IMG/VR virus record: IMGVR_UViG_3300036832_001488
Span: 12,915-76,914 of that record
DNA from: a virus
DNA length: 64,000 nucleotides
Reading direction: 5' to 3' (one strand)
Shown: piece after piece, positions 8,962-56,200 of the stretch
Position numbering within the stretch: the stretch's first letter is position 1
Layout of the letters: each line of letters starts with the position of its first letter
The notes under the pieces: model-generated
What the model saw: only the letters and a program-made list of their open reading frames with translations
Told to the model about the DNA's origin: nothing
The model's database searches: none
Position numbers and translations under genes: made by a program

Positions 8962-9648
8962 TTAGGCAACGATAGCCAAAGGCTTAACTCCGTTCATGGC
9001 GATCAGGGAATATCCATCTAACTCCCAGTCGTTATTGGCAATTAGTTGCTTGTAATACTTGGTCCGGTAAACCGTCGCGTGCAGAATCGTGTTCGAATGG
9101 TTAGCTAACCAGTCCTGGCGCGCATTGGTGTACTGGCTGATCCATTTCTTTTCGTCGCCCCCATTAGCCGGTGTCTTTTCGGGGAACCGGTTGCGGATAG
9201 TGGATAGGATCGAGCCCGAATGCAGGTAACTGTCACAGATTACTAGAAAGGAGAGCGGCAAAGTAAAGCCCTGGTCCGTGCCCCACTTGATGCCAGGAGC
9301 TAGATAGAACTTATCGAACATTTCTTCCTGCACCTTCTGCATCACCGGGTCAGCGCCCGCCTCTTTTAAGAGGTTAATAAACTCGGCATTATTAACCAGC
9401 GTTGCCTCCCGCATCCTGCCGACAAACTTACTTATGTTAGCGCTGAACCTGCCGGTGCGCTCCGCGTAAGACGCCACCACCGGCCCCAGGTTGCCATACT
9501 GGGTGAAGCCGATAGAGAGCGTGATCTGCCGGACGTTGTTAGGGCCGTCCGCATAGATATAGACGGCCCCGTAGGCTATCTCTTGCCTGCCCTGTTCGGC
9601 CACGATCAGCACATTGCGGATCTTGGCTACTTCGTTTGATGGGATCAT
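8962..9648 (-). CDS. endolysin, GH46 chitosanase/lysozyme-like
   Basis: AEQG..AYGAVYIYADG...ITLSIGFTQYGNL, DPVMQKVQ, CDSYLHSG; ATGA overlap with upstream membrane gene. Confidence 0.7.
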   Translation of the reverse strand: MIPSNEVAKIRNVLIVAEQGRQEIAYGAVYIYADGPNNVRQITLSIGFTQYGNLGPVVASYAERTGRFSANISKFVGRMREATLVNNAEFINLLKEAGADPVMQKVQEEMFDKFYLAPGIKWGTDQGFTLPLSFLVICDSYLHSGSILSTIRNRFPEKTPANGGDEKKWISQYTNARQDWLANHSNTILHATVYRTKYYKQLIANNDWELDGYSLIAMNGVKPLAIVA

Positions 9649-9974
9649 AGATCGCCCGGCGGCAGGTTCTTGCGGTTCACCCAGCGCATCATCCATTCCT
9701 GATTGGCTTTTAATTCAGCAATAGCCTCTGCATTCTTGCGGTTCTGTTCGGTGTCATTGCTCTCGTGTTCCACGATCTTATCCAGCTGGGCCAAGACCTT
9801 ATCGACTTCGTGACGGGTCGCCCCGGTGCCGCTTTTAGTGGCAAAGAAGTTGCCTACTCCAGATAATAGGACCAGAGCCAGCGTGCCCAGCTTAACTACA
9901 TTGTCGCCGCCAGCGGCAATGGAGGTTAGGAGGGCAAGTTTACCGTTTTTCTTTTCGGTCTCAGGATTATCCAC
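9645..9974 (-). CDS. putative holin/membrane protein
   Basis: one hydrophobic segment (LGTLALVLLSGVGNFF) plus coiled coil, directly upstream of endolysin. Confidence 0.45.
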   Translation of the reverse strand: MDNPETEKKNGKLALLTSIAAGGDNVVKLGTLALVLLSGVGNFFATKSGTGATRHEVDKVLAQLDKIVEHESNDTEQNRKNAEAIAELKANQEWMMRWVNRKNLPPGDL

Positions 9975-10197
9975 TTTGCGGCAAGGGCCATGTTTGCTGG
10001 GCACTAAAAATGTCAGTCATGTAGACCGGAGGAGGCAGATAATCGACCTGCGGGCCTGGAGGATAGATGGACAAGTAAGGTGGCATAGCCCAGGGGCCTT
10101 CCTCTGGGCTGTAAGCATAGCTTTGATAGACGATGCGGCGAGGCACGTTAATCGCCTGTTGTTGGTTCTGCCCGCAATATGGATCGACTGGACTCAT
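9967..10197 (-). CDS. Pro/Tyr-rich microprotein
   Basis: 76 aa, coupled at both ends. Confidence 0.45.
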   Translation of the reverse strand: MSPVDPYCGQNQQQAINVPRRIVYQSYAYSPEEGPWAMPPYLSIYPPGPQVDYLPPPVYMTDIFSAQQTWPLPQSG

Positions 10198-10367
10198 TTA
10201 AACTTCTTTAAGGTCTCAGCTAACCTTGCCCGCTGGCCGACCTTGCCTCCTTTTTCTGCCGCTTTAGCTAACTTTTTCGCCGGGATCTTCTGACCCTGTT
10301 TAACTCCTAAGTCTTTATGCAAAGCCCCTGGTTTCTTAATCGCACCCTTGATCCAATTCTTAGCCAT
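10194..10367 (-). CDS. 57-aa Lys-rich phage protein (not in ORF track)
   Basis: MAKNWIKGAIKKPGALHKDLGVKQGQKIPAKKLAKAAEKGGKVGQRARLAETLKKFK; GGAG upstream; ATGA overlap. Confidence 0.7.
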   Translation of the reverse strand: MAKNWIKGAIKKPGALHKDLGVKQGQKIPAKKLAKAAEKGGKVGQRARLAETLKKFK

Positions 10368-10375
10368 AGTGTCTC

Positions 10376-10669
10376 CTACTTGGTTGGTGAATAGATCGGC
10401 GGTTGCGTGAGACCCACGGCCAGGGGCACCGCATAGGCGTTGCCGGTGTTGTTATCCAGAATGATCAGGTTGTTGCCCTGGATATACATTCGCGCCTGAG
10501 CCGGAGGAGGCCCTGGTGTCACCGGAGTATTAACTCCGGCATTGATCGTGCCGACCTCGCCCGTGCCTTTGGGGCCGTAGCCTGTTCCGGCATAGGTACT
10601 GAAGGATCGGGAAAGCGCCGGGTCAGCGGCACCGCATCCGCCTTCCCATGGAACTGGAACTGATGGCAT
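10376..10669 (-). CDS. Pro/Gly-rich small protein
   Basis: ATG 10669 just after the beta-helix stop. Confidence 0.5.
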   Translation of the reverse strand: MPSVPVPWEGGCGAADPALSRSFSTYAGTGYGPKGTGEVGTINAGVNTPVTPGPPPAQARMYIQGNNLIILDNNTGNAYAVPLAVGLTQPPIYSPTK

Positions 10670-32010: not shown

Positions 32011-32207
32011 CCAGCCTTCTTTACCTTGTTATTGCAGCCATTATTCTGGGACTCATTTGGTGGGTCTGCACCCAGCTTCCGTTCATGGCCCCATTCGCGC
32101 ACATCATCCAAGTGTTGTGTGTGGTCGTTTTTGTTATCTACGTCATTTACATTTTAATCGGCTTTATCGGAGGAGGAGGAGGTCACCTCGCTGCACCACC
32201 TAGATGA
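32004..32207 (+). CDS. small two-TM membrane protein
   Basis: two hydrophobic helices separated by LPFMAPF. Confidence 0.7.
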   Translation: MLASLLYLVIAAIILGLIWWVCTQLPFMAPFAHIIQVLCVVVFVIYVIYILIGFIGGGGGHLAAPPR

Positions 32208-32641
32208 GACGTTTTTGGGATAAGGTTCGCGTTCCAGCTGACATTTCCAAATGTTGGGAGTGGCAGGCAGCAAGCCAGAATGATGGTTATGGAGTTTTTC
32301 AGACCGGAACATTCAGATCGCCTCGCCTAGAGAGAGCGCACAGAGTCGCATTTAGACTAACTTTTGGTGAGCCTCCTTCAGGATTATGCGTTCTTCATAG
32401 GTGTGATAAGCCTTCCTGTTGCAATCCCAATCATCTGTTCTTGGGAACCAAAGCTGATAATAACGCCGACATGGACAATAAGGGGCGGCGGAGACACGCC
32501 AGCATCCTGACAAGGCAGCAGGTGGAACGGATTCGAAAAGAATACGCTCCCGGTCAGAACGGCTACAAAAAGCTCGCTCGCTGCTATGGGTTGACGGAGT
32601 TCCATATTCGCAGCCTGATCAAAAGGAGGACCTGGGCGTGA
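32204..32641 (+). CDS. HNH homing endonuclease with C-terminal HTH
   Basis: RFWDKV..CWEW..DGYG..AHRVA..VLHRCDKPSCCNPNHLFLGTKADN. Confidence 0.9.
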   Translation: MRRFWDKVRVPADISKCWEWQAASQNDGYGVFQTGTFRSPRLERAHRVAFRLTFGEPPSGLCVLHRCDKPSCCNPNHLFLGTKADNNADMDNKGRRRHASILTRQQVERIRKEYAPGQNGYKKLARCYGLTEFHIRSLIKRRTWA

Positions 32642-33617: not shown

Positions 33618-34859
33618 ATGGGCGATTGTATCGTCACCCCGGTTCAGGCCGTGGACTTTGCCAACCGAGACAACAACCGTCTCGTTGGCCAGATCACCAC
33701 TCTCATTATGCGGCGCGCGCCGTACAATGACACTTTAGATGGCGGCGTTTTCGAGAATGCCATTTCCGATCAACAGCGCAACGTAGTCGTTGAGCGACCG
33801 ATTCTGGGCCAGTCCCTGGTTCTGCCAGAATACATCAACGACACCGATTCCTGCGGAACCTTTGGTCAGATCGCGCAAGTAGGCACGACGGAGTATGTAA
33901 CTAGGCTTGGCACGCTCAGAGGAAGAGGACCAAAAGTTTGCGTTAAGCAAATGCGCAGTGCCTTCCAAAATTCCTATGTTGCAGTTCAAGACTCACTCCA
34001 AAAACAGTTACTCTATCTGGCTAACTGCGATGTGCGTTCTCAGTTGTTTTTACATAGTGGCGTTAAGGTTAAGATTAACCAGGGCCGCACCTTTGAACAA
34101 ATGGTCAATGGCGACGTTCAAATGATCGATGTTCCTGTGAACGATTCGACGCCACCGGACGCGAACCTCACCTTCAGTTTCCTGCAGTATTTGTTAGTTT
34201 TCGCGCATGAAACCTTACTCTGCGAGAGCTTCGAATCCGAGAAAGGCACGGTTGCTAAGTTCATTGGTAGTCAGACTCAGCTGAATGTCTTCCGCGATGA
34301 GCTGAATGTTCACCAAGACTTGCAGTACCTGACCACAGGCCGCTACGAGTTAGGTAACGAATCTATAACAGGTTATACATGGGAGGGTCCATACAGAGGC
34401 ATTGCGTTTGGCATAGATCAGCAGCCTCTGCGTTTTAACCAGTTTACCGTCCTCAACGGTCAGCTGATCCCGCAGTTTATCGAGCCAGAAATTGCGGTTC
34501 CGGTGACCACTGGCTTTGGCGCGCGGACTAACCCGGCTTGGCTCTATGCCCAGTACGAGGTTGGCTTCCTCATGTTTGCCAACTCGTTCCGCCGGTTAGT
34601 TCCTGAGCAATACTTAGGCGTTGGCGACTGGAAATTTCCAGCCCAGTTCGCCCAAGGAGAATTGGAATTCACGGTCATTAGAGATAATGACTGCAACACT
34701 TACGGCGACTACGGCTATCACATCTACCAAATGATCAGGGCCTATCGGCCGGAGAGGCCTCATGCCGTGATTCCGATCATGTACAAGAGGTGCAACCCGA
34801 CCTTTAACTTCCTAACCTGCCCGAGCTATCCTGGCTCTGCCAGCGGTTACGCGATGTAA
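33618..34859 (+). CDS. major capsid protein
   Basis: 413 aa downstream of portal/scaffold, followed by a strong terminator; length and position typical of an HK97-fold MCP. Confidence 0.75.
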   Translation: MGDCIVTPVQAVDFANRDNNRLVGQITTLIMRRAPYNDTLDGGVFENAISDQQRNVVVERPILGQSLVLPEYINDTDSCGTFGQIAQVGTTEYVTRLGTLRGRGPKVCVKQMRSAFQNSYVAVQDSLQKQLLYLANCDVRSQLFLHSGVKVKINQGRTFEQMVNGDVQMIDVPVNDSTPPDANLTFSFLQYLLVFAHETLLCESFESEKGTVAKFIGSQTQLNVFRDELNVHQDLQYLTTGRYELGNESITGYTWEGPYRGIAFGIDQQPLRFNQFTVLNGQLIPQFIEPEIAVPVTTGFGARTNPAWLYAQYEVGFLMFANSFRRLVPEQYLGVGDWKFPAQFAQGELEFTVIRDNDCNTYGDYGYHIYQMIRAYRPERPHAVIPIMYKRCNPTFNFLTCPSYPGSASGYAM

Positions 34860-34865
34860 TCAAAT

Positions 34866-34896
34866 CAGGGCGGCGAATAGCCGCCCTGTTAGTTTT
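34866..34896 (+). terminator. intrinsic terminator after MCP
   Basis: CAGGGCGGC-gaata-GCCGCCCTG then TTAGTTTT. Confidence 0.8.
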
Positions 34897-41050: not shown

Positions 41051-41443
41051 ATGCCTGATAAAGAGGGGATGTCCCTGATCCGCATCAACAATGAAAAAGA
41101 GATGCGTAACTGGGGAGTCGACCTTCTTTCCCGCGACCTCTGGGGCGGTGATTGTCCGCGCCAGTACCCGGTTTACATCGTCTTCTATCACGGCCAGCCG
41201 GTAGGCTATTTCCTAACTGTTCAGCAGTTTGTGGTTTACCCGGCGCTGCACCCGGAGCGGATAAGTCCACGGGAGTTTCTGAAGATTACCCGCAGTCTGG
41301 TGAGCGAATTTAAGCGCATGGTGGGCAATCCGATCTTTATGATGTGCAAAAAAGATCAGGAGTTCGGAGCTAACAATTTTAGGCGGATTCGGCTCAAGCG
41401 AGCCGACGAAACGGCTTATATCTACGACGAAGAGGCCCCATGA
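41051..41443 (+). CDS. small protein before ejection genes, possibly GNAT-like
   Basis: YIVFYHGQPVGYF hairpin; position equivalent to podovirus internal-protein GNAT genes. Confidence 0.4.
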   Translation: MPDKEGMSLIRINNEKEMRNWGVDLLSRDLWGGDCPRQYPVYIVFYHGQPVGYFLTVQQFVVYPALHPERISPREFLKITRSLVSEFKRMVGNPIFMMCKKDQEFGANNFRRIRLKRADETAYIYDEEAP

Positions 41444-42900
41444 GATTGTTTGATTTCATAGTATGGCTATTTGGTCCCCGCTACTTTGGTGGCGGCGGGG
41501 GCGGTGGTTCTAGTCAATTTAAGGCTCAAGGCACTCCTCCTGGCTTTGATTACCAAGCCGCCCAGGGCCTTAACCAGATGGCTATTGGCGGCGATATCCA
41601 AAGTTATGCTTTAAGTGACGCCGACTTTGCTAACCGTTATCCGGCGCTGCAGAATGCGTACAACCAGTGGCAAGCTAATCTAGGTAACCAAGTTAACGCT
41701 GCCGGAACGGCTACCGCAGGCCTCCAGAATGTAATGGGTGGATTAGGTAACCAGATCGCGGGCCGTAACGCCACTCCGACAACGACTGACATCAATGCGA
41801 TCCGTAATGCGGCTTCGACTGCCGCTGGCGCAGTAAAGCCAATTATGGGCCTGGGAGCCCAGCAGGCCGGACTTGCTCAACCCATTGCGAACGCAGGCGC
41901 ACAGATCGGCCAGATGGGCGGGCAGCTCGCCGGGATGGCTGCGACTCCTTACGCTCTGGGCCAGCAGCTGTTGCAGGAGCCGATTGATCCTAACACCCAG
42001 CAGCAGATGATGCGGGCCGGGTTAGGAACCACCTTGGGCGCTGGGTTAGGTGCCGCCTCACTTGGCCAGGGCATGGCCGGACAAAGCGCAGCCGCGCGCC
42101 AGCTAGGCTTAAACACCGTGCAGTATGGACAAGCCATGCGGGGCGAGGCCATGGGCGACATCTCCCAAGCCGCATCGATTTTGGGCCAGGGTGGGCAGCT
42201 CTCCGGCCTTGGCGCGCAGACTCTGGGGCTAGGCTCGACGACTCTAGGCCAAGGGGCCCAGACCTTAGGGCTAGGAGCCCAGACCGCAGGTCAGGCTGGC
42301 CAACTTTCGGGTGCTGCCCAACAAGCCCAGGAACAATACGGGATGGATACAGCCCAGATGGCGAACATCTACGGCAATTTGCAGAACCAGCAGGCCACCA
42401 ATCTGATGCTCAATATGCAGACTGCCGGGAACATGTTCCAGAAGCGGCCCTTCGGGTTAGGCGGAACTAACATGGCCCAGACCGAGCTGGGGCAGGCTGG
42501 GGCTTATAATTCGTTCCAGCAGGCCAATTACGCCACCATGAATGGCATCGCCTTTAACCAAGCTCAGCTCAATGCTCAGAACCAGCAGATGGCGGCTCAG
42601 CAGCAATCGGCTACGACTGGAGCCTTGGTTTCAGCCGGTTCGACTGCAGCCATGGTTGGAGCCACTGCCGCAGGCGCGTGTTGGATAGCGCGCGCCGCCT
42701 TTGGGGAGAATTCGCCTAAATGGCGAATATTCCGGCACTGGCTGATGAATAAAGCCCCCAGGATCGTCCGCAGAACCTACCTAGTGTATGGACCCTCCTT
42801 TGCCCCGAAAGTGCGTGCAAACAGGCTGCTAGGGGCCTTAGTGAGGGGATTTATGACCCTCGCCATTAACCGGACCACCTATGTATGTCTACCCGCTTAG
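41440..42900 (+). CDS. putative ejection/internal virion protein with C-terminal CFI-box-CTERM-like domain
   Basis: Q/G/A-rich helical body; GACWIARAAFG...WLMNKAP...YGPSFA. Confidence 0.6.
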   Translation: MRLFDFIVWLFGPRYFGGGGGGGSSQFKAQGTPPGFDYQAAQGLNQMAIGGDIQSYALSDADFANRYPALQNAYNQWQANLGNQVNAAGTATAGLQNVMGGLGNQIAGRNATPTTTDINAIRNAASTAAGAVKPIMGLGAQQAGLAQPIANAGAQIGQMGGQLAGMAATPYALGQQLLQEPIDPNTQQQMMRAGLGTTLGAGLGAASLGQGMAGQSAAARQLGLNTVQYGQAMRGEAMGDISQAASILGQGGQLSGLGAQTLGLGSTTLGQGAQTLGLGAQTAGQAGQLSGAAQQAQEQYGMDTAQMANIYGNLQNQQATNLMLNMQTAGNMFQKRPFGLGGTNMAQTELGQAGAYNSFQQANYATMNGIAFNQAQLNAQNQQMAAQQQSATTGALVSAGSTAAMVGATAAGACWIARAAFGENSPKWRIFRHWLMNKAPRIVRRTYLVYGPSFAPKVRANRLLGALVRGFMTLAINRTTYVCLPA

Positions 42901-44105
42901 AGTTGCGTGAAGCTTGTGCGGAGGCCCTTAACCGGCTCTCCAGAGAAGAGCTGTTAGAGAAGTTTGCGATCTCGCGGGTGGCCGACGTGACCGGCCTGGA
43001 TACTATCGGAGTGCCGGTCTTCACCACTACCAGGGCGCTTTCCCAGACCCTGTCTATCCATGCCGGTAAAGGCCTGGAGCGCAAGTTGGCACGCGCCGGA
43101 GCTATTGCCGAAGCCATTGAGTTTGAGGTGGCTGAACATCCTTTTGGGGACTTTAAACTGGCCAATAGTCTACAGTTGCCAGAGGAAGATCATCTGCCGG
43201 TAGAGGATTGTTTCCCGATCCGTGCTTCGATTGTTAACGAGATGACACCGATTGCCTGGGAAGAGGCAACTAACGTCCAGAATGGGGCCGTTAAGTTTGT
43301 TCCTAGTGATCTGATCTGGATAGCGCCCCGGTTAAAAGAGCAACCCTTCATGTATTTTCAGGTCGGCTCTAATGGGCTGGCCAGCGGTGCGACCCTGGAA
43401 GATGCCATCCTTTCTGGCCTCTATGAGATCGTGGAACGCGATGGCTGGACCATCCACACCTACATGATGGAGAACTTAGGCATTTTAGCTAACCGGATGC
43501 CGTTAGTTAGTTTGTGTCCCGAGATCGAGGAAATTGTCCGGCGCTTAGATGAGCAGAAGCTCAAACTGCATCTCTTTGACTGCACCACCGATTATCAGGT
43601 GCCGGTCTTTGCTGCGACCATTCTGGATTTAAGCGGCAACTGTGCCGGAACCTTTGCCGGTTACGGGTGCCATCTGAATGCGGAGAGCGCCGCTCTGCGG
43701 GCGATCACTGAGGCCATCCAAGGCCGCGCCTGCTATATCTCCGGCGCGCGCGATGACATGCTTCGCCGCCAGTTTCTTCTGATGAAGCGGATGGATCAGG
43801 CGAGGCTCGACCAGATGTTTAACGAGTTGGAGCGAGGCTCTTCCATCAGCGAGTATCGCAAGGTCGAGTTCCCTGACATCAAAAGCGAATTACGTTATTT
43901 ACTGAAGTTACTTAAATCCAGAGGCGTCAGCGAAGTCTTTGTCAAAGACCTGGGACAACATGCCGATTGCCTGCATGTAGTCCGGGTCTTTTCGCCCCAA
44001 TGCGAGCCGCACCGGTTCGACTACTGGACTCCAGGCTTACGTTGTCTTTCCTATGCGCAGCGCAAGCTGGAAGAACTTAAGGAGGATAAAGAATGTCCGA
44101 CCTGA
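42885..44105 (+). CDS. ycaO: YcaO-family ATP-dependent amide-activating enzyme (TfuA-associated clade)
   Basis: ISRVADVTGLDTIGVPV, GKG..A..AEAIE, SNGLASG, EIVERD, GYGCH, RAITEAIQGR..ISGARDD, VVRVFSP. Confidence 0.93.
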   Translation: MSTRLELREACAEALNRLSREELLEKFAISRVADVTGLDTIGVPVFTTTRALSQTLSIHAGKGLERKLARAGAIAEAIEFEVAEHPFGDFKLANSLQLPEEDHLPVEDCFPIRASIVNEMTPIAWEEATNVQNGAVKFVPSDLIWIAPRLKEQPFMYFQVGSNGLASGATLEDAILSGLYEIVERDGWTIHTYMMENLGILANRMPLVSLCPEIEEIVRRLDEQKLKLHLFDCTTDYQVPVFAATILDLSGNCAGTFAGYGCHLNAESAALRAITEAIQGRACYISGARDDMLRRQFLLMKRMDQARLDQMFNELERGSSISEYRKVEFPDIKSELRYLLKLLKSRGVSEVFVKDLGQHADCLHVVRVFSPQCEPHRFDYWTPGLRCLSYAQRKLEELKEDKECPT

Positions 44106-45436
44106 TCCTTGTTTACCTGGGCCCGAGTCTGGAGCTGGAAAAGGCTAAAAAGATTATACCGGAGGCGATCTATCGGCCACCGGCTAGGCAAGGCGATATT
44201 GCGAGCGACGTCATTAATCTTAATCCCAACATCATTATCCTGATCGATGGGGAGTTTCGCCAGAACTTGAGCCCCTGGCACAAGGAGATCGTGTATGCGC
44301 TCCAGCATCCAGGCGTTAGATCTATTTACGGAGCCGCCTCTATTGGCGCTCTGCGTGCGGTTGAGCTGGAGTACTTGGGGATGATCGGGATCGGCAAGAT
44401 CTATGAATGGTTCAGAGACGGTGTGACCGAAGACGACTCAGAGGTGGCACTTAACTATGTGCGGCAAATACGGATTAAAGACAATGACCCGGCCTATACG
44501 GCGCTGAGTGTGCCCCTGGTTAACATTCGGGCCGGAGTCGAGCATTATCGGAAGGAATTTGCGGATAATCCTGCCGTAACCGAGTCGGTAGAGCAGTTCT
44601 TTAAAGTGATGCAGGCCACTCACTACAGCGAGCGCACGGTCGAGCTTTGTGAAGAGATGTGGGCCGGTGCCTTGGGTGTTAGTTTTCCTTGCATCCCGCA
44701 AAAAGAGTTAGACGCGGTTGAGGCCCTCTCCAACTTCTGGAACTATCTGCCGCAGGTAAAGGTCAAGCCCAGGCCCGACCATCTCTCGCACGCTTTCCAG
44801 TCTCTCTATGACCGGGACCGGCGTATCAAGGTTAACGGCCAGGCTGTCGCTCAGCAGCATATTGATAGCTACGTCCTACTTCATAACCCTGAGTACGAAC
44901 GGATTTGCTGGGACAGTGCCAACCAAGAGCTGGCCTTGATTTTGTGTAACGCCCTTTTTGTGATGGTCGATTTAAGCGAGGTCGAGATGGAGTCGGCCCG
45001 ATTCCAGAGCCGGTGCGAGATTAAATCCATTGAAGATTTTAACCATATGCTGGCTAACAACGGCTGGAGCCGAGGCGAATACGACCGGCTGATGGTGCAG
45101 AACGCGCGCATCCGCAAGCTGCAGCACACTTTGAGTTCTGCCAAGCATTCCCGGCGTAACACCTGCGCCATCCTCGACTATCTGCGCACCCACCAGGGCT
45201 TCGACTACTGGGCGGTTAAGGCGGCACAGAAAGAAGCCCAGATTGAACGGATGGGGATCGACGAGTGGCCGCTGGATTTAGAAACTTCGGCCTGGAAACT
45301 CTTAGAGGACCAGTTTGAGGCCGAAGGCCTGGAGCTGAAATCCTCCCAGGAAGCTTACCTGTTAGAAACCGGATTTAGTAATAAACGCGAGCTGGCAGTG
45401 GCCTTAAATCGGCTCCTGGCCCTTAAGGAGGCATAA
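44093..45436 (+). CDS. tfuA: TfuA-like protein with long C-terminal extension
   Basis: VYLGPSL, PPARQGDI, LIDGEF, WHKEI, GAASIGALRAVEL, GMIGIGKIYE, DDSEVAL, LSVPLVNIR, HYSERT, QKELDA. Confidence 0.93.
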   Translation: MSDLILVYLGPSLELEKAKKIIPEAIYRPPARQGDIASDVINLNPNIIILIDGEFRQNLSPWHKEIVYALQHPGVRSIYGAASIGALRAVELEYLGMIGIGKIYEWFRDGVTEDDSEVALNYVRQIRIKDNDPAYTALSVPLVNIRAGVEHYRKEFADNPAVTESVEQFFKVMQATHYSERTVELCEEMWAGALGVSFPCIPQKELDAVEALSNFWNYLPQVKVKPRPDHLSHAFQSLYDRDRRIKVNGQAVAQQHIDSYVLLHNPEYERICWDSANQELALILCNALFVMVDLSEVEMESARFQSRCEIKSIEDFNHMLANNGWSRGEYDRLMVQNARIRKLQHTLSSAKHSRRNTCAILDYLRTHQGFDYWAVKAAQKEAQIERMGIDEWPLDLETSAWKLLEDQFEAEGLELKSSQEAYLLETGFSNKRELAVALNRLLALKEA

Positions 45437-45438
45437 TT

Positions 45439-47466
45439 ATGGCGGCGACGACGAATGCCTTTAATAACACGAATCAGAATCAATTCGGCGGCATGAATTT
45501 TACTGACTGGAGCCAAGTAGCTGACATGTTCGGCACTTCGGTCGTTCAAGCCCTCCAGCAGAATAATGTGGCCCTTAATCAGGTAGGCTCAGTCATCGGC
45601 AAGCTGGGCATAGCTCAGCAAACTAGTTCGGGCACCTCAGGCCAGTTCGGCGCGTCTAATCCGCAAAATATTTCTTCCGGTTTCACCTTAGCCGATGCGA
45701 TTAACCAGCAGCAAGGCGGCAGCGGCAGCGCTCAGCAAAGCAATTCGGGCACCATCAATATGACCGGCTGGCAGAACCCGGACTACGCAACTAACCTGTT
45801 AGGCGCGCAAGCTCTGGAGGCCGTGGGGCTTAATCCCAGTAAGACCATGACGGTTAATCCACAGCCCTCGGCGGTTACTTCCAGTCAAGATTTTGCTAAA
45901 AGCGGCGTATCTAGTGTTGCCGGGCCGCAAACCTTCGACATCAGCCAAGCGCCCATGCCGAATCCCAATCCGAGTATCGGGAGCGTCTTTGGTGCGGTCA
46001 AGCCGCTTAACCCAACGGTCAGTGGCCCGATGACACAACAGCCCGCCAACACCAATCCTAATTGGGCGAATTGGAGTACGGCGCAGCAGAACGCCTACAT
46101 GAGGCAGCAGGGCATGCATCCCGCTGAGAGAGCCACCTATTCGCAGGAGCAGAATCAAATCCAACAGAATATAAAACAGGGCAATTACCTTAACCCGACT
46201 GTCCAGGCGACCGGAGCCCAGGCGACCCAGCCTCAGGCGTTTGCGACTCCTCCACCAATTCCGACTATCCAGACACCTCAGGTTTCTTCTCAGGTTCCGG
46301 CTAGCACTGGGACTCTTCCGCAGCCTCCGGCAGCGCCAGGAAATGCTATTGCTGGATCGCCTTTTGGGCCGATCTCTAGTCTTTCACCGAGTGCAACACC
46401 TCCAGGGCCATCCAGTATGCCCCCTGGATACGGGACGGCGATTAAACATATGGCGGGAGGCGGCTCGGTAGGCGGCACCGACACGATCCCAGCGATGCTG
46501 ACTCCAGGCGAATACGTGATTAACCGGGATGCGGCCCAACAGATCGGGCGCGGACGTTTAGACCAGCTTAATGCCGAAGGTGGTCGCCTTCATATGCAGG
46601 ATGGCGGCTCAATTCCTGGCGCTAGTCCTTCCTATGGCTATTCACCAGGGGCAGATGCCCAGAGCTTTGCTTTCCAGCAGCTCTCACCACAAGAACAAGT
46701 TGTCCTTCAAGGAGGCGGGGCGGCGGGACAACGGGTTCAGCAGAAATTTAATCAACTGGTTAACAACTATCAGGGCAGTTCTGGAACTCCTACTCCGATG
46801 TCGGCACAGATGGGCATGAACAACCCCGCTGCTACTACTGCCCAGGTTCATCCCACGGCACCGGCTGCGCCTGCAGGCCAGCCGCAGCAGCAGAAACCAG
46901 CCGGTTATTCCGGCTCGCTCGACCAATGGTTAGCTCAATATGGACATACGCCGCAGGGCCAAGCCTATATTGCGCAGAATGGGAATGTTAATGAGGTGCA
47001 GCGCTATCTGCAAAATCTAACCACTCCTCAGACGACCCCGGCGACCTCCCCGGCGACCTCCATGCCTGCTTACACCGACACTGCCCCGCGAGCTAGCCTC
47101 GTCTCGGCTCCGGCAGGCTACGGTGCAGCTCCGCGAGCTGAACTAGTTGGCTTACCGGCAGGCCAAGGCGAAGCCTATGACCCGAAGACCTACGGCATCA
47201 ATACTGGAGCCAGTGGGGCGGCAGGAATGGCCGGTAACATCGCTGGCGCTATTGGGCAAATCGCCCAAGCTTTTACGAAAGGTGCCGGGGCTAGCCAGCC
47301 ATACAAGTGGATTCAGAGCGCGATTCCCAATCCTGCCGATCTTAAAAGCCAGACTCCTGATATCGTCTTGCAGGGCCATCAAGTTGGTAAACCTAATACA
47401 CCGGGAGGCTATGTCCTTATGGCCCAGCCAAATGATCAGCCCAGGGAAGACACCTATCTGAGTTAA
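45439..47466 (+). CDS. putative ejection/internal virion protein
   Basis: Q/S/P-rich; GTDTIPAMLTPGEYVIN motif found in tape-measure/internal virion proteins. Confidence 0.6.
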   Translation: MAATTNAFNNTNQNQFGGMNFTDWSQVADMFGTSVVQALQQNNVALNQVGSVIGKLGIAQQTSSGTSGQFGASNPQNISSGFTLADAINQQQGGSGSAQQSNSGTINMTGWQNPDYATNLLGAQALEAVGLNPSKTMTVNPQPSAVTSSQDFAKSGVSSVAGPQTFDISQAPMPNPNPSIGSVFGAVKPLNPTVSGPMTQQPANTNPNWANWSTAQQNAYMRQQGMHPAERATYSQEQNQIQQNIKQGNYLNPTVQATGAQATQPQAFATPPPIPTIQTPQVSSQVPASTGTLPQPPAAPGNAIAGSPFGPISSLSPSATPPGPSSMPPGYGTAIKHMAGGGSVGGTDTIPAMLTPGEYVINRDAAQQIGRGRLDQLNAEGGRLHMQDGGSIPGASPSYGYSPGADAQSFAFQQLSPQEQVVLQGGGAAGQRVQQKFNQLVNNYQGSSGTPTPMSAQMGMNNPAATTAQVHPTAPAAPAGQPQQQKPAGYSGSLDQWLAQYGHTPQGQAYIAQNGNVNEVQRYLQNLTTPQTTPATSPATSMPAYTDTAPRASLVSAPAGYGAAPRAELVGLPAGQGEAYDPKTYGINTGASGAAGMAGNIAGAIGQIAQAFTKGAGASQPYKWIQSAIPNPADLKSQTPDIVLQGHQVGKPNTPGGYVLMAQPNDQPREDTYLS

Positions 47467-47479
47467 CATCCTTACGCAT

Positions 47480-50206
47480 ATGCCAGGAGAAGAAACTAAA
47501 CACGAACCGGCTGGAATACAGACCCAAGGTCTTTATAACCCTTCTGTTACCCAGCTTCATTTTACTCCGGTGCAGTATGCCAACTATGGACCGATGCTCC
47601 AGGCAATCGAGTCAGCTGGGTCCAACATTCTGCATTACATGAATCCATCGACTATCGCCAAGATGAAGATGGATGTGGCCAGCTCTGCTGCTGGTAGACA
47701 GTTCTTGGCTCAGGCCACCAAGAACCAATATCTTATGGCAAGCCAGGGCTATGTGCAGGGAGGACAGTTTGGGCTGCAGCCCGCTTATGAGAACCCACTC
47801 TTGCGTCAAAAGCTGGCTGGCCCATTTATTAAACAAAACGCCAATGACGGCAAGACTGAGGTTGATCCGAATTCCGTCAACCCTCCCCAGCAGAGCGGAA
47901 ATACTAATAACACTTCCAACACAGCCAATAATCCTAACCCTCCGGCCTCTAACGTGCAGCCATGGTGGGGGGGGCAGGTTAGGACGGGAGACGTCAATAC
48001 TGATGCCTTGACCAATCCTGACTATTCTCAAATCGTGCCTCGCCCAGGCTATGCCACCGGTTACCAATCTGGCGGCGAAGTGGAAGCTCAAGATCAGTCA
48101 ACGGTGCAGCAGCAGCCTACGAATTATTTCTCTTCCGCTAATGCCATTCCGCCCCCGCCGATTCCAGCTGTTCAGCAATCGCCTCAAGATCAGAGATTGT
48201 CTTCCACTCTCCCTGCCCATATCCCGTATTCGCCCGAAGCCCAGGCTGGGGCTTTTGCTCCGCAGCAGGGTGTTGGCGAGCTGAGTCCAGAGGTGTTAGC
48301 CCGTCAGCAGGCTCAGCGCCAGCTTGAACAACAGAATTTAATCAGTTGGCAGAATCAGAATGTGGGGAGCCCCTTGAGCGCCGAGGAAGCGAGGAATTGG
48401 GCGCGCACTAGTCTCGATACCGATATTAACCGCGCGGTTTACCTGCCGCAGGGTGGCCCGCCTGGACAGGGTGGCCAGCGCGAACCGGCTTATGCTTTCT
48501 ATGGGAAAAAAGGTGGCACTAACATCGTGCCCATTAGCCAGATGATAAAAGCTGGGGCTGGCCCCTTGATCGCAGCCCAAAACGCCAGCCAAACCCTAAA
48601 TCACAACGAGCAAAACCAGCCACAGCAAAACCAACCGCAACCCGGCCAGCCTGCCGGAGCAACGCCTCCCTGGACCTCTTCAGGACAAAACCCTCCCACA
48701 AGTCCAATGCAGCCGGTGCCTGGGACTAATCCTAATGGCGTTCAACCCATACCGAATGCACAGCCTCCTGGGAATGGTCCGCTCACGGCTGGGATGCCCC
48801 CAGCGGCTCCCGGCGGGACGACGCCCGGTGCTCAAGTGCCCCAACTACCGGGCGGCGGAACTAACTGGGGCGCAATACCGGGGCAATTACCGAATGACGT
48901 GTTTAACCAGCGGGTGGCAGCGGCAACTAACACCGCTCAGACCGGGGGCCCATCACTTGGCCAGCTCTACGCCAGCACTAACAATCCAGCTGCCGCTGTA
49001 AGCCAGGACTTTGTCAAGGCTAACACCGGAGCAACCGCAGAAGATATCGCCCAGGCTAAAGCCAATCTTCAATCTAGACTCTCTAGCGGAGATTCTACAG
49101 TAAATCGGGACGCCGATGGCAACCCGTCCCTAGGCAGGCTCGGTGATTTTCAGTATTACCAATCCGATAATGGTAAGGGATTAGCCTATGCTGATCGCGA
49201 TGGTGAGGGCGGTTTTTACCGGGAGCGGCTCTGGGAAGGCGACACTCAGTGGAAACCTATCCTGCCCAATGCCAATCAAGCCCGCCAGGATTTATTAAAC
49301 ACACAGTACGGCAAGACGCTTGGCATTCAGAAAATCAGTCAGATGAACGCGCAGCAGCTCTCTGATGCGCTCTACAGTGATTACTACATACACAGCATCT
49401 TGCCAAGCATGCCCAACTTGGAGCCTGGGCAAGCCACCAAGATAGAAAATTCCTATTATAAGATCTTGAGCGGCAACCGGTTGATCCATGCTTTAGAGGG
49501 CCAAGATCCAGGGGATTTCAACTATTCCGCGCAGGGCGTCAACTTAGCCAATCGCGCTGGGCAAGGTCTTTTTTCAAAAAACCCGCAGGGGCCGATCCAG
49601 CAGGTCGGAAATGCTCTGTCCTCACTACTGGGACTTGCAGCTGGCCCCAAGAAGGAAAACGACCGGCTAACCTTTGTCCAACAACAGGAAGCTAGCTTAA
49701 TCAACCGGATGCATAATAAACCGGAAGGTTCCGAGATAAATCCTTTGGACTGGGTAGCTGGCGACAACGAGCTAGGTGGGATCGGCACCGGCAGTGCTAA
49801 TGCTCTGGATGCTTTAAAGAGGAAAGTTAGCGGGTGGCAGACAGAGTGGAATAACGACATGTTCGCAGCCAGGGCTAATAAGTCGCGCATGCCCGGTGCC
49901 TGGAACGATCTCATGAACGATTTCAATGCTGGGAAACCTTGGTATGATCCGCAGGATACCTATGGTCCCGGCAGGAAACAGCCCAACGAGATCGGTCCAT
50001 TAGCAGCGGCGGATGCTGCCCATACAACGCTGGCTCCGCGTGTAACCAATAGTCCTGCGCCTCCAGCTCCTGGCGCAGGCAGACCTACTCAGGGCGCGGG
50101 TTCCAGCCGCGACAATCCGATAGTTGTGCATAGCGATGATCAATTTAACAGTCTGCCACAAGGCACGCACTGGAGGGATGAACAAGGCAACGAGGGACAA
50201 AAGTGA
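47480..50206 (+). CDS. putative ejection/internal virion protein
   Basis: 908 aa, Q/N/P-rich; C-terminal DDQFNSLPQGTHWRDEQGNEGQK motif. Confidence 0.6.
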   Translation: MPGEETKHEPAGIQTQGLYNPSVTQLHFTPVQYANYGPMLQAIESAGSNILHYMNPSTIAKMKMDVASSAAGRQFLAQATKNQYLMASQGYVQGGQFGLQPAYENPLLRQKLAGPFIKQNANDGKTEVDPNSVNPPQQSGNTNNTSNTANNPNPPASNVQPWWGGQVRTGDVNTDALTNPDYSQIVPRPGYATGYQSGGEVEAQDQSTVQQQPTNYFSSANAIPPPPIPAVQQSPQDQRLSSTLPAHIPYSPEAQAGAFAPQQGVGELSPEVLARQQAQRQLEQQNLISWQNQNVGSPLSAEEARNWARTSLDTDINRAVYLPQGGPPGQGGQREPAYAFYGKKGGTNIVPISQMIKAGAGPLIAAQNASQTLNHNEQNQPQQNQPQPGQPAGATPPWTSSGQNPPTSPMQPVPGTNPNGVQPIPNAQPPGNGPLTAGMPPAAPGGTTPGAQVPQLPGGGTNWGAIPGQLPNDVFNQRVAAATNTAQTGGPSLGQLYASTNNPAAAVSQDFVKANTGATAEDIAQAKANLQSRLSSGDSTVNRDADGNPSLGRLGDFQYYQSDNGKGLAYADRDGEGGFYRERLWEGDTQWKPILPNANQARQDLLNTQYGKTLGIQKISQMNAQQLSDALYSDYYIHSILPSMPNLEPGQATKIENSYYKILSGNRLIHALEGQDPGDFNYSAQGVNLANRAGQGLFSKNPQGPIQQVGNALSSLLGLAAGPKKENDRLTFVQQQEASLINRMHNKPEGSEINPLDWVAGDNELGGIGTGSANALDALKRKVSGWQTEWNNDMFAARANKSRMPGAWNDLMNDFNAGKPWYDPQDTYGPGRKQPNEIGPLAAADAAHTTLAPRVTNSPAPPAPGAGRPTQGAGSSRDNPIVVHSDDQFNSLPQGTHWRDEQGNEGQK

Positions 50207-53200
50207 ATGGCCGCTCTCACTCAAGACCAGCTCGATCAGCTGAAGGCTGCTGCTGAAAAAGAAAAGGCGCGTGCCCCCGGCGCATCCACTCCTGGCTATG
50301 CTCTGCCGACTGCGCCCGCTGCCCCTGACGGGGCGCAGCCTCAGCCGCCGCCAGACCAAGGTCAGCAGATAGGGCGAGCTAATGCTGCAGCCGCTGGCAT
50401 TACGACCCCGGCTGGTCCGCGTTCGCTTGAGAGCGCATCCACTCCTGGCTATGGCATAACCACACTCCCAGCGCCAGCTGCGCCTGATGGCAACGCCCCT
50501 CCTAGCCAGACGCCTCAAGCTCAAACCCCGGCGCAGACACCTCAGGACAATGAGTTTAGTAATCCCGGCACTAACATCCCGGCTGGTTACCGGGCACCGG
50601 CAGTCAAGGCTGAGCCGACCGACGATGAGTTAAATCAGAAAAGCGCTGACGATCTGTTCCCTTATTTCTCTACCTCAAATGACGTTAACCCAGACCGGGC
50701 TGCAGCCTTCTGGCAAAATAAGAAGAATCAGGAACTCAGTAATCAGAGCTTCGATAACAACAAAGCGGTGCTGTGGAACGATCTATCCAACGTATGGAAT
50801 AAAATCGTTCAGACAAAGGGCGTCGTTCCCAACACAATTAACTATTTTAAGAGCATCGTTAACTCTCTTGGCGGAAGTGGCGATGATGTCTTACAAGCTT
50901 TCGGCAACCAAAACGCGATTGATTATCGCCAGGATCTAGATGGCAAACTGGCGAACAACACTATCAGCCAGCAAACTCACGACCAGAGTATGGCGTTAGT
51001 AGATCAGGCTCAAAAGCTGCAAGACAAACTGGCCTTCGAGAAGCTAAGCCCCCAGGAACAGCAAGATATTAAAGTTCAGATTGCTGGACTACTCACGAAA
51101 TCTGATTCTGACTTTGCCCAGCATCAGCAGACCAAGGCTTTTCAGCAGGTTTTCACTGGCCTCAATCTCACTTGGAACAAGATGCGTGCGGTGAGTCACG
51201 CCCTGGATGATTTCGATAACTATGACCTTAATCCACCAGGGTTTGATTGGCAGAAATATTTTACGGGCCGGGATTCTGCCGCCAGCTGGCCGACCAAAAA
51301 GTTAGCGGCCTTTTTCAGTGCTCATCGCCCGGTTGCTCAAGCTATTAGTCAGGGAGAAAGCGGTCAGGTTCCAGGCTGGGTCAAAGGGTTTAACCAATGG
51401 GATATAGACTGGAAAAAGCGCATGGGTTTGCTACCCAGTACAGCGGAGTACGCCTCCCCTGAACAGTTAGCTAAAGAAGGGAGCCCGATTTCCACCCAGC
51501 GGATTCAAGACACCTCTGATATCTCTAATTTGGCTCTGCAACTGGCGTTAGATCCAGCCCTGGGAATAGAAAACTCCATGGAGCTAGCCAGCTCTAAACT
51601 GTTAGGCGGCTCAGCTAAGGTCGCCGGATTGGGGCCACCAATAGCCGGACTCACCCAAAAGCTCTGGAACAGTGGCGTAATGGAGCCGATACGGCGCGGA
51701 GTCGCCTATTACGAGACTTTCTTTCAGCATAACCCAATGTTGGGCTTGGCGTGGACGATGGGCGGCGGAATGGCTAACCTCGGATTGGGCGCTTATCGGA
51801 GGTGGGGGCACCTTGCCAGCGACGTGCTGGATGACGCCGCTAAGATGAACTTTGAGCAGGGTGGCCCCATGTCACTGCTTAGTCGCGGCGCGCGGCTTAC
51901 TAGTGACTCCATTGTTCATTCCCTGCCTTATGCGCTTTTAAATAGCGATGGGGATTCTAACCGGTTCTGGGATAATCTGACTACACTGGCCCCAGTCCAA
52001 TTTGCTGCCAGAGCCATTCCTCAGGCCGGGCAAGCCGTAGGGACCGAGTTAGGTGACAATCTCTTTGGGCGGCTGGGAGAATTCCGTGACACTACACCGG
52101 TTGATTATCCTGGGCCTGACCCGAATTTAAATGCGCATTCGCAGGCTAACCTTCAGGACGTCCCTCGCGATGAGAAGAATCAGTTCGCTACTCTCCAGCA
52201 TTTTCAAAACGGCAACACGCGGCTTTATTTAGTCACGCCTGAAGTAGCCGATGATTATCAGGCACGTTTTGGGGGCGATGCCCAGCCCCGGCCTTACGGT
52301 TTCTGGGTAGGGCCAGATCGGACGGGGACTGGCCAGGGAGCAGCCTTTGTCCTCAAAGATCGCATTAAAGAAGCAGCCGGACACGAGGCGACTCACGGAG
52401 TCTTTTTCTCTGCTTCTAAAGAGGACCAAGAAGCGCTGATGAATAATGCGCTCAAGTACAATGATCCAGACAAATTCATTCAGGATCATTACAACCAGAA
52501 AGCTACTTACGCCTCACTGCCGGAAGACGCGCCCTCAGCCGATCCGACGATGCTCTCTAAGAAGTTGGTTCGCACCGAGATGGCAGTCGAGTCACTCAAA
52601 CAATGGTTTAACGCGCGAAACGCCGAGCAATACACAAAACAAAACCCAGGGTTATTACGCAGCATTCGCATGGTAGCTGGCAGCTGGCTGGAACGGATCG
52701 GGATTCCTACCCAGACCTTCAAGTCAACCAGCGAGATGGGCATCAATCCCTATTTCGCTAACGGGCTTATCTCAGACGGCCTATGGCGCAAAGCGGCCAG
52801 GGGCTATCAGATGAATCCCAAAGATCCCAGCTGGCCGGTGGGCAATTGGCCGCTGAACCCTGGGGATACGTGGGACACTACTGGGCGACCGCCGCCGAAA
52901 ACTCCCCCGCCGACCACGCCGCCGCCAAAAACGCCCCCAACTCCTACTACTCCGGCTGAAGGCGCGCTTCACGAGCAACAGACCGGCATGAGTCCAGAGG
53001 TTCAGGCCGCTACTGGAAAAGGACCGACCGCTACTCCGGTTGATGAGTCGGTGATCCAGGGCTTGATGAAACAGGGTTTTACCCGAGCGCAGGCCGAAGC
53101 TTTCGCAGCCAAGGGCACCGTGAGTCCGGTTAATGAGCCTCCTAAACCGACTGAGCCAGCGCCGCCCACTGCGCCTCCAGCCCAGGAAGAGATTGCGCGC

Positions 53201-56200
53201 CGCGCCTATGAAATCAGCCAGGAACGTGAACAAAAGGGGACGCCCGGTGATCACGTCAGTGACTGGCATCAGGCGGAAACCGAGCTAAGAGGCGGCAAAA
53301 CGGCTCCTAAGGCTGGGCCGGAAGCGCCAGCGCCTGAAACCCCGGCCTCAAACACTCCTGACTATCATGCTCAGCTTGAGGAATTGAGAAAAAAAGGAGT
53401 CCCGGCAGGCGAAGCTCAAGCCATCGTTGAAGGGCGACAACCCAAGACCTTGGAGCAGGAACAAGGTCCGGCTCAAATGCCGGGAAAGCGCGGCGCTAAA
53501 GGGCCGATAGTGAGTAGCCCAAAGCCAGTTTGGGGTCCGGGTGCTGGAATCTTTGGTACAGCAGCTAACGCTCTTAGCCCGCCAACGCTTATCGGCGCAC
53601 AACGCACCAATGCCCTTCCGCCTAATCAAGGCCCAGAGACAGTCGGAACACTGCCGCCACCCGCGCCAAGCTATGGAGCGCCCCCGACCCGCGCTCAGCA
53701 ACCCGCTAAAACGGGCTATGGAGCGCCCCCGACCCGACAACAGCCTACCGAACAGAAAACGGGCTACGGAGCGCCCCCGACCCGCACACAACCCGAGGTT
53801 CCAAAGCCCGAGGTCAAGCCAGAACCATCACCTGCGGTTGCGCCTGCGCCTAAGAAGGCTGCGGTAGCCCCGAGCGCTGATTCACGCACCGTTACAAGCA
53901 CAGAGTTCGGCTTTGTCGACCGGGCTGCGGTTGCCGCTCATCCAGAGAAATATCCCAGCAAGAATCGCGGGTTCAGTGATTTCGGTTCTCAAGATTTATC
54001 AGGGGAGAACACAAAAGGTGTTTCTGTTCCGCCGGAAGATTTACAAGCTCACTTCGGCAACAATGCCATCTACCGCGACAAAAACGGCGCATGGCACGCT
54101 AGCCCTCGCTTCGCCCAGATGGTGAAGAACCATGACGTCATGGTCGAGGTGACAAACCCTGCTAACGGGAAAAAAGACTTGGCTCCGATTGTGGATATCG
54201 GGCCGACGAAATCGACCGGCGCTGGGTTAGACGTGCTGCACGGGACAGCCCAGTCTATCGGTTTTACCAGCGGCAAGCAGGCGCTGAGCTACCGCTTTGC
54301 CGGTGGCGAGATGCCGCAAGGCGCTCCCTATAAAGGCTACAGTAATCTAGCGGATGCCGCCGAGGCTAACGTAGGGCGCTTAAATACGGTGCAAGATCCC
54401 GGCACCAATGGTGGAGAATTAGCTTGTGCTGACGCCGTCACCCGCATCGTGCGGGGGCAAATGCATATCGATCTGCCGCGCACACTCTCGACAGCCACCT
54501 TGCACAACGAGTTAGAGGACGGTGCTAGCAAGGGTTGGTATCAGAAGGTGCCCATCAACACACCAGGGGCCATCGTAGTCAGTCCATCCCAAGGAGAGAT
54601 TCACGGCCACACCGGCATCGTGGGCAAGGATGGAAAATCGATCTATTCCAACTCCTCAAAGGATGGCAACTGGGAAAAGAACTACACCACCGAGGGCTGG
54701 CAGAATCGTTTTGGTAATAATGTCTATGCTTATTTGCCTACGGATAAAGCTCCGCAGGTTAAGCCAGGGGAGGAAGACAAATGGGCCAGTGGAGAAGGCC
54801 CGCAGGCTGGCGGCGGTGAGGGCACTGCAAGCGGTGGTGGTGGAGGAGGAGGCGGCGGTGGAGGCGCAGAAGTGCCTTACTCGCCCTTGCCACCAATGCC
54901 AGCACAAGAAGAAGAAAAGTCAGCGGCAGTGCCAGGGATGGAAGAAGCGGAGCGCGAAGGCGCTGCGACCGGCGGCGGCAGTGGCGGTTATGCGGAGGAG
55001 CCTGCGACCCACATGACTCCCTTTGCCAGCATGTACCCATTTGGGATGCCCTCAGCTGCTCAGATGCGCGCTCCCATGACTCAGGGTGAAGCCATCCAGC
55101 AATCCCAGATGGGTGCGGCCAGTACGCAAGCTCCAGCGGCCCCCGGTGGCCTCTATTACATGCGTGGCCCCAAGCTCGGTGGCATTACGCCCGAAGAAGA
55201 GGGCGGCGCACCGACAGAGTCAACTTTGGGTGAACCTAACGTTAAAGGGTTCGGCAAGCTCAAATCGCTGTTAACTCAAGGCTACGGTGCCGATAACATT
55301 ACTAAAGCCCAGAAGTTACATGCGAGCCTGCTTTCTAGCGATGATACTCGGGTTAAGAAGCAAGCTGACAATATGTTTAAAGGGGAGCACTTCCTTGCAG
55401 GCGACCCTATGCATCAGCATATGCTAGCTGAGCTGCCTGAGAATGAACGGGTGGCCCTAGCGGCGGGACAGACGGCGATTCAAAACAAAAAGCCGATGCA
55501 TCTGAGTTACATCTCGGCTCCTCCCGGTCCTGGCAAGGAATCGGCTATTACGCGGCAGTCTCGCGAAGTTAACTATGATGCTTCCAGCCCCCAGGCCCGG
55601 TTGTTAGGTCAGACCAATGGAAGGTTGGCAGGCGATTCCATGATCCCGACCGCTATCGGGATAGGCAAAAATCGGGCCAAGGGAATGGCGCAAAACTCTA
55701 GTGGTTATCTGCAGGGCATCTCGACTAGTGTAGCGGCGCACAATCACGCTAAGCTCAATGAGGCGCTTAGCGAAATGGGTCAGGAGTCGCCTTATCCAGA
55801 GCTGGGGCACGCTAAGTTCAGGAATGATCTGAGTGGCTACGTGCAGAACCTCTTAGCTGGCCATAAAGGCACTGGTAAAGGCTATCAAGCTGGCACCGCA
55901 GAATATCCGGCTAACCCAGATCGCAAATATGTTCCCTACCGGCTGAAACAGCGCGAATCCGATTTCCTGAATGCGGTTATCAACAATCAAGCCGCGCGCC
56001 ATAGTAAAGGCTATCAGGCGTTAGCTAAGGCCGGAGGCACCTTATTAAACGAAGAGGGCGAAGTTAACCCGATGCGGCGCGACATCGATGCCCATATGGC
56101 GGGCTTGCGAGGCGGCAAAGCAGAAGAGATTAAGGACGATGGCATAAAGAAAGCCGCCAATGAGCGTTGGAGTAAACAGGTACTGGAGCCGACTATCCGC

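Follow-up and report, generated by a model that had tools for sequence, protein, structure and literature searches.

A YcaO-TfuA pair conserved among the virion-type genes of an uncultivated soil-phage clade: a candidate system for backbone thioamidation of a phage protein

The 64,000-nucleotide stretch analysed here (the window) comes from an IMG/VR virus record of 76.9 kb that was obtained from a soil metagenome (IMGVR_UViG_3300036832_001488; estimated completeness 77%), and it carries overlapping ycaO and tfuA genes within a co-directional array of virion-type genes. We propose, with a probability of about 0.5 for the reading as a whole, that this pair is a core and vertically inherited part of a clade of uncultivated soil phages with genomes of about 74-78 kb, and that throughout the clade it forms a working ATP-dependent backbone thioamidation system directed at a phage protein of the same late operon. 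The chemistry and the enzyme families are already known; what is new is that they occur in a virus, at a fixed position in the virion operon, with a chaperone-like domain on TfuA and a structural protein as the probable substrate. From sequence, gene order and predicted structure we infer the formation of the thioamide, the protein that would receive it and its role in the virion. To our knowledge, backbone thioamides are very rare, occurring in McrA, uL16 and a few peptide natural products. YcaO enzymes are able to act on whole proteins, namely McrA and the ribosomal protein uL16, which is thioamidated by Escherichia coli YcaO (PMC13063428).

The features that carry the argument are as follows.

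42885-44105, + strand: ycaO, 406 amino acids (aa), ATP-dependent backbone-amide-activating enzyme by Pfam, NCBIfam and solved-structure matches
44093-45436, + strand: tfuA, 447 aa, with the Pfam TfuA match in its N-terminal part
44093-44749, + strand: N-terminal TfuA domain, residues 1-219 (PF07812, 6XP8 fold match)
44750-45436, + strand: C-terminal extension of TfuA, residues 220-447, helical, its centre (about 265-364) resembling a chaperone module
41440-42900, + strand: upstream Gln/Gly/Ala-rich virion-type protein, 486 aa, the leading candidate substrate
42607-42678, + strand: Ala/Gly/Ser/Thr/Val-rich stretch of 24 residues (390-413) before Cys414 of the upstream protein, the proposed thioamidation site, from the homologue alignment
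42679-42897, + strand: C-terminal domain of the upstream protein, residues 414-486 (C-W-I-A-R...FG...W..FR.W), from the alignment

An intact YcaO with a TfuA partner

The initial annotation of this DNA had described a full-length ycaO with intact ATP-binding motifs, adjacent to a tfuA, and the profile searches that it suggested bear out both assignments. YcaO matches Pfam PF02624 at E 4.9e-59 over profile positions 1-324 of 325 as a full-length single domain, and contains the motifs GKG (residues 61-63), EAIE (76-79), SNGLASG (162-168), EIVERD (181-186), TEAIQGR (275-281) and GARDD (287-291). Residues K62, E76, E79, N163, E181, E184, R185, E276 and Q279 are invariant in 22 homologues, and the protein thus has both the complete domain and the ATP/Mg-binding residues by which the superfamily is recognized. 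Its best NCBIfam model is that of the methanogen YcaO that forms thioglycine in McrA (TIGR03266), at 184.6 bits and so below the equivalog cut-off of 365 bits, and its nearest solved structure is MJ1094 (6PE3, E 3e-32). Against the uL16/S12-type model NF040716 it scores only 49.4 bits, where the cut-off is 700, and it is accompanied by a TfuA, which places it outside that group.

Partnership with TfuA is an established marker of thioamide-forming YcaOs. Here the two genes overlap by 13 nt and the TfuA partner has both the PF07812 domain and the fold of the solved TfuA 6XP8, as expected of a TfuA-dependent system, while no E1/ThiF-like or Ocin-ThiF partner and no fused cyclodehydratase domain was found (PF00899 is absent from five phage genomes). 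This partnership points to thioamidation chemistry. In combining a stand-alone YcaO with TfuA and no E1-like partner, the phage pair resembles the methanogen system that modifies McrA (MJ1094, 6PE3/6PEU; TfuA, 6XP8), which acts on a protein and not on a leader-bearing peptide; it differs in that the phage has no McrA, its TfuA carries an extra 228-aa domain, its setting is a virion operon and its scores fall below the family cut-offs. An McrA-like [FYW]G[FYW] motif was considered as a target and rejected, the few matches being at chance level. E. coli YcaO is similar in recognizing a whole protein rather than a leader peptide, and differs in having no TfuA, in belonging to another subfamily and in serving a host housekeeping target. 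Neither ThiS nor ThiF was found in this genome (77% complete) or in four relatives that are at least 90% complete, in agreement with the initial annotation, which saw neither gene nearby; the sulfur must therefore come from the host.

TfuA is a two-domain protein with a chaperone-like extension

The second gene had been described as a full tfuA. An intact TfuA domain is indeed present, but the protein is a fusion of this domain with a further conserved domain of 228 aa. Pfam PF07812 is matched at E 5e-29 over its whole length (profile 1-119 of 119) and covers only residues 52-182 of 447; the best NCBIfam model, NF033432, gives 141.5 bits against an equivalog cut-off of 235.2, and the sequence match to 6XP8 has E 6e-24. 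In the AlphaFold2 model (predicted local distance difference test score, pLDDT, 83) residues 3-219 align with the Methanosarcina acetivorans TfuA 6XP8 at Z 24.5 and a root-mean-square deviation (rmsd) of 2.4 over 202 residues, and the S-x-G-A-L-R-A motif of this domain is invariant in the alignment of phage homologues.

The extension (residues 220-447) is conserved in all phage homologues. Searched alone against 1.8e9 representative proteins it recovered 156 clusters at 50% identity; of the matches with at least 400 aa, 96 of 97 are also fused to TfuA, and about a dozen of 250-285 aa resemble stand-alone copies. One match lies on a 4.65-Mb contig, which means that the long form of TfuA is not restricted to phages. 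The TfuAs on plasmids of rhizobia, Streptomyces and Legionella align with the query only in its N-terminal TfuA part, none covering 80% of it, and the extension of a long Streptomyces TfuA was rejected as a homologue, having proved unrelated on comparison.

Folded alone, the extension was modelled with a pLDDT of 87, and VIA matched its central 90 residues (about 265-364) to SurA (Z 7.2, rmsd 2.5 over 88 aa), trigger factor (Z 7.1) and PEB4 (Z 7.0), followed by PrsA (Z 5.9-6.4) and PpiD (Z 4.8). Foldseek puts the same chaperone family first, but with E about 1. At the level of sequence, 80 of 401 cyanobacterial genomes encode parvulin-type prolyl isomerases (about 260 aa) whose N-terminal part is matched by a profile of the extension, the lowest E being 4e-10; hhalign of the extension with a parvulin-type isomerase N-domain gives a probability of 93.6% and E 2e-7 over 90 columns, and the commonest weak Pfam match among members of the extension family is SurA_N_3 (2 of 21, E 0.013). 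We propose that the extension may be a chaperone-like, polypeptide-holding module of the SurA_N, PrsA-N and trigger-factor-C kind. The chaperone-like TfuA domain is previously undescribed, and may account for the handling of protein rather than peptide substrates.

The pair is conserved and under purifying selection in related phages

Hundreds of YcaO homologues were found at 60-72% identity, many of them on contigs of 74-79 kb. The order of genes running from the presumed capsid gene to ycaO-tfuA is kept on related IMG/VR contigs, including those of a distant group in which YcaO is only 37-41% identical. Presence of the pair was also surveyed from anchors independent of YcaO, the capsid gene and the upstream gene, counting only contigs that reach the site. 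YcaO is present in all 15 such contigs anchored on the capsid gene and lies directly downstream in all 21 anchored on the upstream gene, and the pair is found in each of five whole records, among them a complete 73.8-kb genome with terminal repeats and a 132-kb relative. In the latter the capsid gene is some 30 kb away and the upstream gene is still adjacent to the pair. The viral survey for conserved synteny, proposed with the initial annotation, therefore found the pair wherever the site was reached (15/15, 21/21 and 5/5).

Compared with three close relatives, the ratio of non-synonymous to synonymous substitution rates (dN/dS) is 0.055-0.066 in ycaO; in tfuA it is 0.07-0.115 over the TfuA domain and 0.056-0.106 over the extension. 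The pair is under strong purifying selection, and the relaxed selection that had been named as a counter-indication was not seen (0.055-0.115 overall). A phylogeny against cellular homologues had been asked for earlier; in it, 21 phage YcaOs group as a single clade (support 97/97) apart from the four sequences of cellular context that were sampled, a thin outgroup. Chimeric assembly, which had also been raised, is excluded: the locus is not chimeric, since more than 20 independent contigs, drawn from different metagenomes, share this gene order and the GC content is level throughout the region.

The initial annotation knew of no characterized phage example, and none came to light here. Among 50,697 GenBank phage records there is no DNA match to the pair, no match to the capsid protein and no TfuA, the only YcaO match being a host ycaO at the edge of a prophage; a literature search across about 8.4 million full texts turned up no account of a phage YcaO-TfuA. 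Viral scans with the YcaO of a Prochlorococcus contig and with a distant long TfuA gave no matches, and a pattern scan of species genomes returned one contig only.

Two side observations concern the pair itself. In the distant subgroup a small Cys-rich, zinc-ribbon-like open reading frame (ORF) of 85-101 aa lies between ycaO and tfuA (L016: 11214-11519; L017: 11178-11435), and in the relative L006 an HNH-like insert (9502-10041) sits directly 5' of ycaO.

The upstream gene encodes the leading candidate substrate

The overlaps reported in the initial annotation are exact: 13 nt between ycaO and tfuA, 16 nt between the upstream ORF (41440-42900) and ycaO, and a gap of 2 nt between tfuA and the ORF that starts at 45439. 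As ycaO has no Shine-Dalgarno sequence of its own and its ATG sits 16 nt within the 3' end of the upstream gene, this arrangement suggests that translation of ycaO is coupled to that of the upstream gene. An AAGGAGG Shine-Dalgarno sequence precedes tfuA, and another, 2 nt past the tfuA stop codon, serves the next gene.

The upstream protein has no family match in Pfam, PHROGs or NCBIfam. Its homologues range from 210 to 576 aa and share the conserved blocks YALSDxDFxxRYPxL, RxFGLxG and NxFQQANYA. All 16 contain an Ala/Gly-rich stretch, in which Ala and Gly make up a fraction of 0.38-0.67, compared with 0.25-0.32 in three of the proteins taken whole, and in 14 of the 16 this is followed by a Cys and a C[WVH][VIML]AR domain. 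In the remaining two, L015 and L017, the stretch forms the very end of the protein, in the fashion of a core peptide, with no following Cys or C-terminal domain. Because the C-terminal domain is missing from these two relatives, the universal element beside ycaO is the Ala/Gly-rich stretch. The C-terminal domain (414-486) was considered as an obligatory 'CFI-box-like' partner and rejected, being absent from L015 and L017 and having no family match; specifically, no NCBIfam or Pfam model, CFI-box-CTERM included, matches residues 414-486 at E 0.01.

In the thioamitide and thiovarsolin pathways of Actinobacteria, YcaO-TfuA places several thioamides on runs of small residues in Ala-rich cores; these pathways differ from the phage system in their leader peptides, many tailoring enzymes and exported product. 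The initial annotation saw no precursor here. No small leader-bearing precursor was found in the window with Pfam, PHROGs or NCBIfam, but the upstream gene holds a stretch resembling a core peptide, embedded within a 486-aa protein rather than behind a leader as in a cluster for a leader-dependent peptide made by ribosomes and modified after translation (RiPP). If a thioamide is formed, the Ala/Gly-rich stretch near the C-terminus of the 41440-42900 protein would be its most likely site, an assignment drawn from the alignment that we make tentatively and hold at clearly less than even odds.

Cellular relatives and alternative targets

A profile search identified three cyanobacterial genomes in which a full-length long TfuA is the neighbour of YcaO (E 1e-53 to 1e-66, across the entire extension), and a follow-up search added six more with YcaO and a long TfuA. 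The phage and cyanobacterial proteins are 29-31% (YcaO) and 30-35% (TfuA) identical over nearly their full length, which makes them closer to each other than the phage proteins are to the rhizobial or Streptomyces pairs. In one of these genomes, G188, two precursors with Nif11 leaders lie directly upstream of YcaO and the long TfuA, and their cores after the GG cleavage motif, SPAAKTGEAAGAIFGPAAASLGAACI and MSTSTAAGATVGGAAMAACI, are Ala/Gly-rich and end in AACI. The phage stretch resembles these two cores. The cyanobacterial clusters, for which we found no published study, share with the phage the two-domain TfuA and, in G188, an Ala/Gly-rich sequence with Cys. Unlike the phage system they are cellular; the precursors of G188 are small leader-core peptides with a GG site, and the majority of the clusters contain a 2-oxoglutarate (2OG)-Fe(II) oxygenase but lack a visible precursor.

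Several other arrangements were noted. A recurrent cyanobacterial cluster comprises a 2OG-Fe(II) oxygenase, YcaO and a long TfuA, with DUF6391 nearby and no visible precursor (L090/L109/L110; G008, G513, G597), and in G286 a long TfuA is accompanied by two YcaOs, one of them fused to ThiF. Two cyanobacteria also have Nif11 peptides at other sites, which were considered and proved unrelated. On L020, a 3.7-kb Prochlorococcus single-cell contig, a 433-aa long TfuA precedes YcaO, the reverse of the phage order; this is probably a cellular peptide-modification cluster, as an ABC-transporter fragment flanks it.

The cyanobacterial Nif11-precursor cluster has a typical RiPP layout, and one explanation would be that the phage pair likewise makes a released RiPP, excised from the upstream protein's C-terminal end or encoded by a small ORF, for use against competing bacteria or phages. 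The position of the Ala-rich stretch at the very C-terminus in two phages would fit this. However, no protease, transporter or GG-site leader peptide was found in the window with Pfam, PHROGs or NCBIfam, the carrier is a protein of 210-576 aa with conserved blocks of its own, and the position in the virion module is kept in all relatives; we regard a released peptide as very unlikely.

Another possibility is a different chemistry, in which YcaO would cyclize the Cys that follows the stretch to a thiazoline, or would make an amidine, with TfuA in some other role. Of the 16 homologues, 14 have this Cys right after the stretch, as do both cyanobacterial cores, and one cyanobacterial cluster also has a ThiF-fused YcaO. 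It is absent from two phages, however, and the TfuA partnership, the lack of an E1/ThiF-like partner in the five phage genomes and the identity of the best models and structures, which are those of thioglycine-forming enzymes, all favour thioamidation, leaving this alternative the most improbable of those considered.

The substrate could also come from the host (a ribosomal protein, say, or another essential one) and be modified late in infection, or after the enzymes have been packaged and injected alongside the internal virion proteins. The known protein substrates of YcaO are cellular (McrA; uL16, PMC13063428), the pair is surrounded by genes placed where ejected proteins would be encoded, and a chaperone-like domain could hold any unfolded client. 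The pair is nevertheless part of the late structural and not an early operon, and its translation appears to be coupled to that of a virion-type gene; its YcaO reaches only 49 bits where the uL16/S12-type model demands 700; and a phage target agrees better with the resemblance between the upstream stretch and a cellular precursor core. We therefore consider a host target unlikely.

The surrounding genes and other phage substrates

The neighbouring features are the following.

41051-41443, + strand: small conserved protein preceding the candidate substrate gene (synteny, Atlas features)
45439-58639, + strand: three large low-complexity proteins of 675, 908 and 2810 aa, co-directional (ORFs)
33618-34859, + strand: presumed major capsid gene, assigned by position only
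34866-34888: terminator-like hairpin after the capsid gene, 9 pairs, 8 of them G-C

The initial annotation placed the pair in a late operon, and the gene arrangement agrees with this: the array is co-directional and tightly packed, with overlapping stop and start codons. The hairpin behind the capsid gene marks the start of the downstream array that holds ycaO-tfuA, and no convincing terminator was found within the array beyond it. The small protein at 41051-41443 is conserved in all relatives at 19-90% identity and always precedes the candidate substrate gene; its true start is probably at 41051 and not at the GTG at 40994, and it may be GNAT-like, with an Atlas feature score of 0.96-0.97 to viral clusters, some of which carry PF00583. 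The three large downstream proteins vary between relatives and give only short matches. In the first (45439-47466) an island at residues 335-392 (GGTDTIPAMLTPGEYVINRDA...) matches tape-measure-type PHROGs, over residues 335-388, and is the sole part conserved in relatives; the last (2810 aa) has short matches to DUF7178 and phrog_3842. By position, low-complexity composition and likeness to the gene order of T7, the neighbours, the upstream protein included, may, by analogy, be internal-core or ejection proteins.

The presumed capsid protein is 94-100% identical in relatives whose YcaOs are 61-66% identical, and 94-97% identical in relatives whose other proteins are about 50-70% identical. Its dN/dS is 0.013-0.021 with synonymous sites near saturation, and the likeness thus reflects constraint and not recent transfer; this constraint is unusually strong even among capsid proteins. 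Could the substrate then be another structural protein of the phage, either the capsid protein or one of the large downstream proteins? The exceptional constraint on the capsid (dN/dS 0.013-0.021, with 94-97% identity where other proteins show about 60%) would be in keeping with the former, and a gene start 2 nt past tfuA with the latter. Yet a strong hairpin and 8 kb separate the capsid gene from the pair, and in the 132-kb relative it is the upstream gene that stays adjacent while the capsid gene lies about 30 kb off; a slow enzyme would also seem ill-suited to a protein present at hundreds of copies per particle. The downstream proteins, for their part, are poorly conserved among the phages that carry YcaO. 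Modification of either kind of protein is distinctly unlikely in our judgement.

Some further features of the window and of the capsid gene were recorded. In L033 (IMGVR_UViG_3300036828_001641) the capsid gene is broken after codon 88 by a 243-nt stop-containing insert (10223-10455) that scores 50.7 bits (E 4.8e-12) with RF00028, the model of group I introns, and L038 also shows a longer capsid-gene match. HNH homing-endonuclease-like ORFs sit at gene junctions, and one in the window (32204-32641) matches PF13392 at E 3e-12. Other window genes encode a terminase, a helicase and collagen-like tail fibres that bear a tail-collar domain; for the majority of the structural genes neither Pfam nor PHROGs gave a family match, PHROGs gave nothing for YcaO, TfuA or most of the neighbours, and no tRNA genes were found. 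A glycoside hydrolase family 46 (chitosanase-like) gene on the - strand (8962-9696; PF01374, E 6.5e-14) is possibly a lysis or host-envelope enzyme.

A proposed model for thioamidation of a virion protein

Two findings, the chaperone-like extension and the core-like stretch in the upstream gene, add weight to the earlier suggestion that the phage would thioamidate a protein of its own. In the mechanism that we propose, YcaO would use ATP to phosphorylate the backbone amide oxygen, the TfuA domain would deliver sulfide, with thiocarboxylated ThiS or free sulfide as the host carrier, and the chaperone-like domain of TfuA would hold the substrate stretch in an unfolded state. This would place one or more thioamides in the upstream protein's Ala/Gly-rich stretch, where they might alter hydrogen bonding in a membrane-inserting or channel-forming segment, or confer resistance to proteases. 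The fullest form of this proposal, to which we give about a one-in-three chance, is that a virion structural protein of the ejection type bears thioamides on an embedded core-like stretch, that these are installed by the virus's own YcaO-TfuA with its built-in chaperone domain, and that they are needed for infection.

A number of observations weigh against thioamidation of the upstream protein. Adjacency of the genes may merely reflect conserved gene order within one lineage, and an Ala/Gly-rich hydrophobic stretch would also fit a membrane helix of an ejection protein. The neighbours are without any family assignment as virion proteins. The extension shows a modest likeness to SurA-type chaperones, at a Z of about 7 and a Foldseek E of about 1, that taken alone is within the chance range for helical matches. 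Finally, an adjacent precursor was seen in only one of nine cyanobacterial clusters, G188 alone passing the small-ORF filter.

If thioamidation of the upstream protein is correct, it would give the first example of a viral protein with a thioamide, and likewise of RiPP-type chemistry co-opted for virion building. The locus supplies a concrete and testable candidate for the substrate. A virus-encoded system situated in the virion operon and fixed throughout a large clade would add a new class of virion-protein modification, and a new ecological setting for YcaO chemistry.

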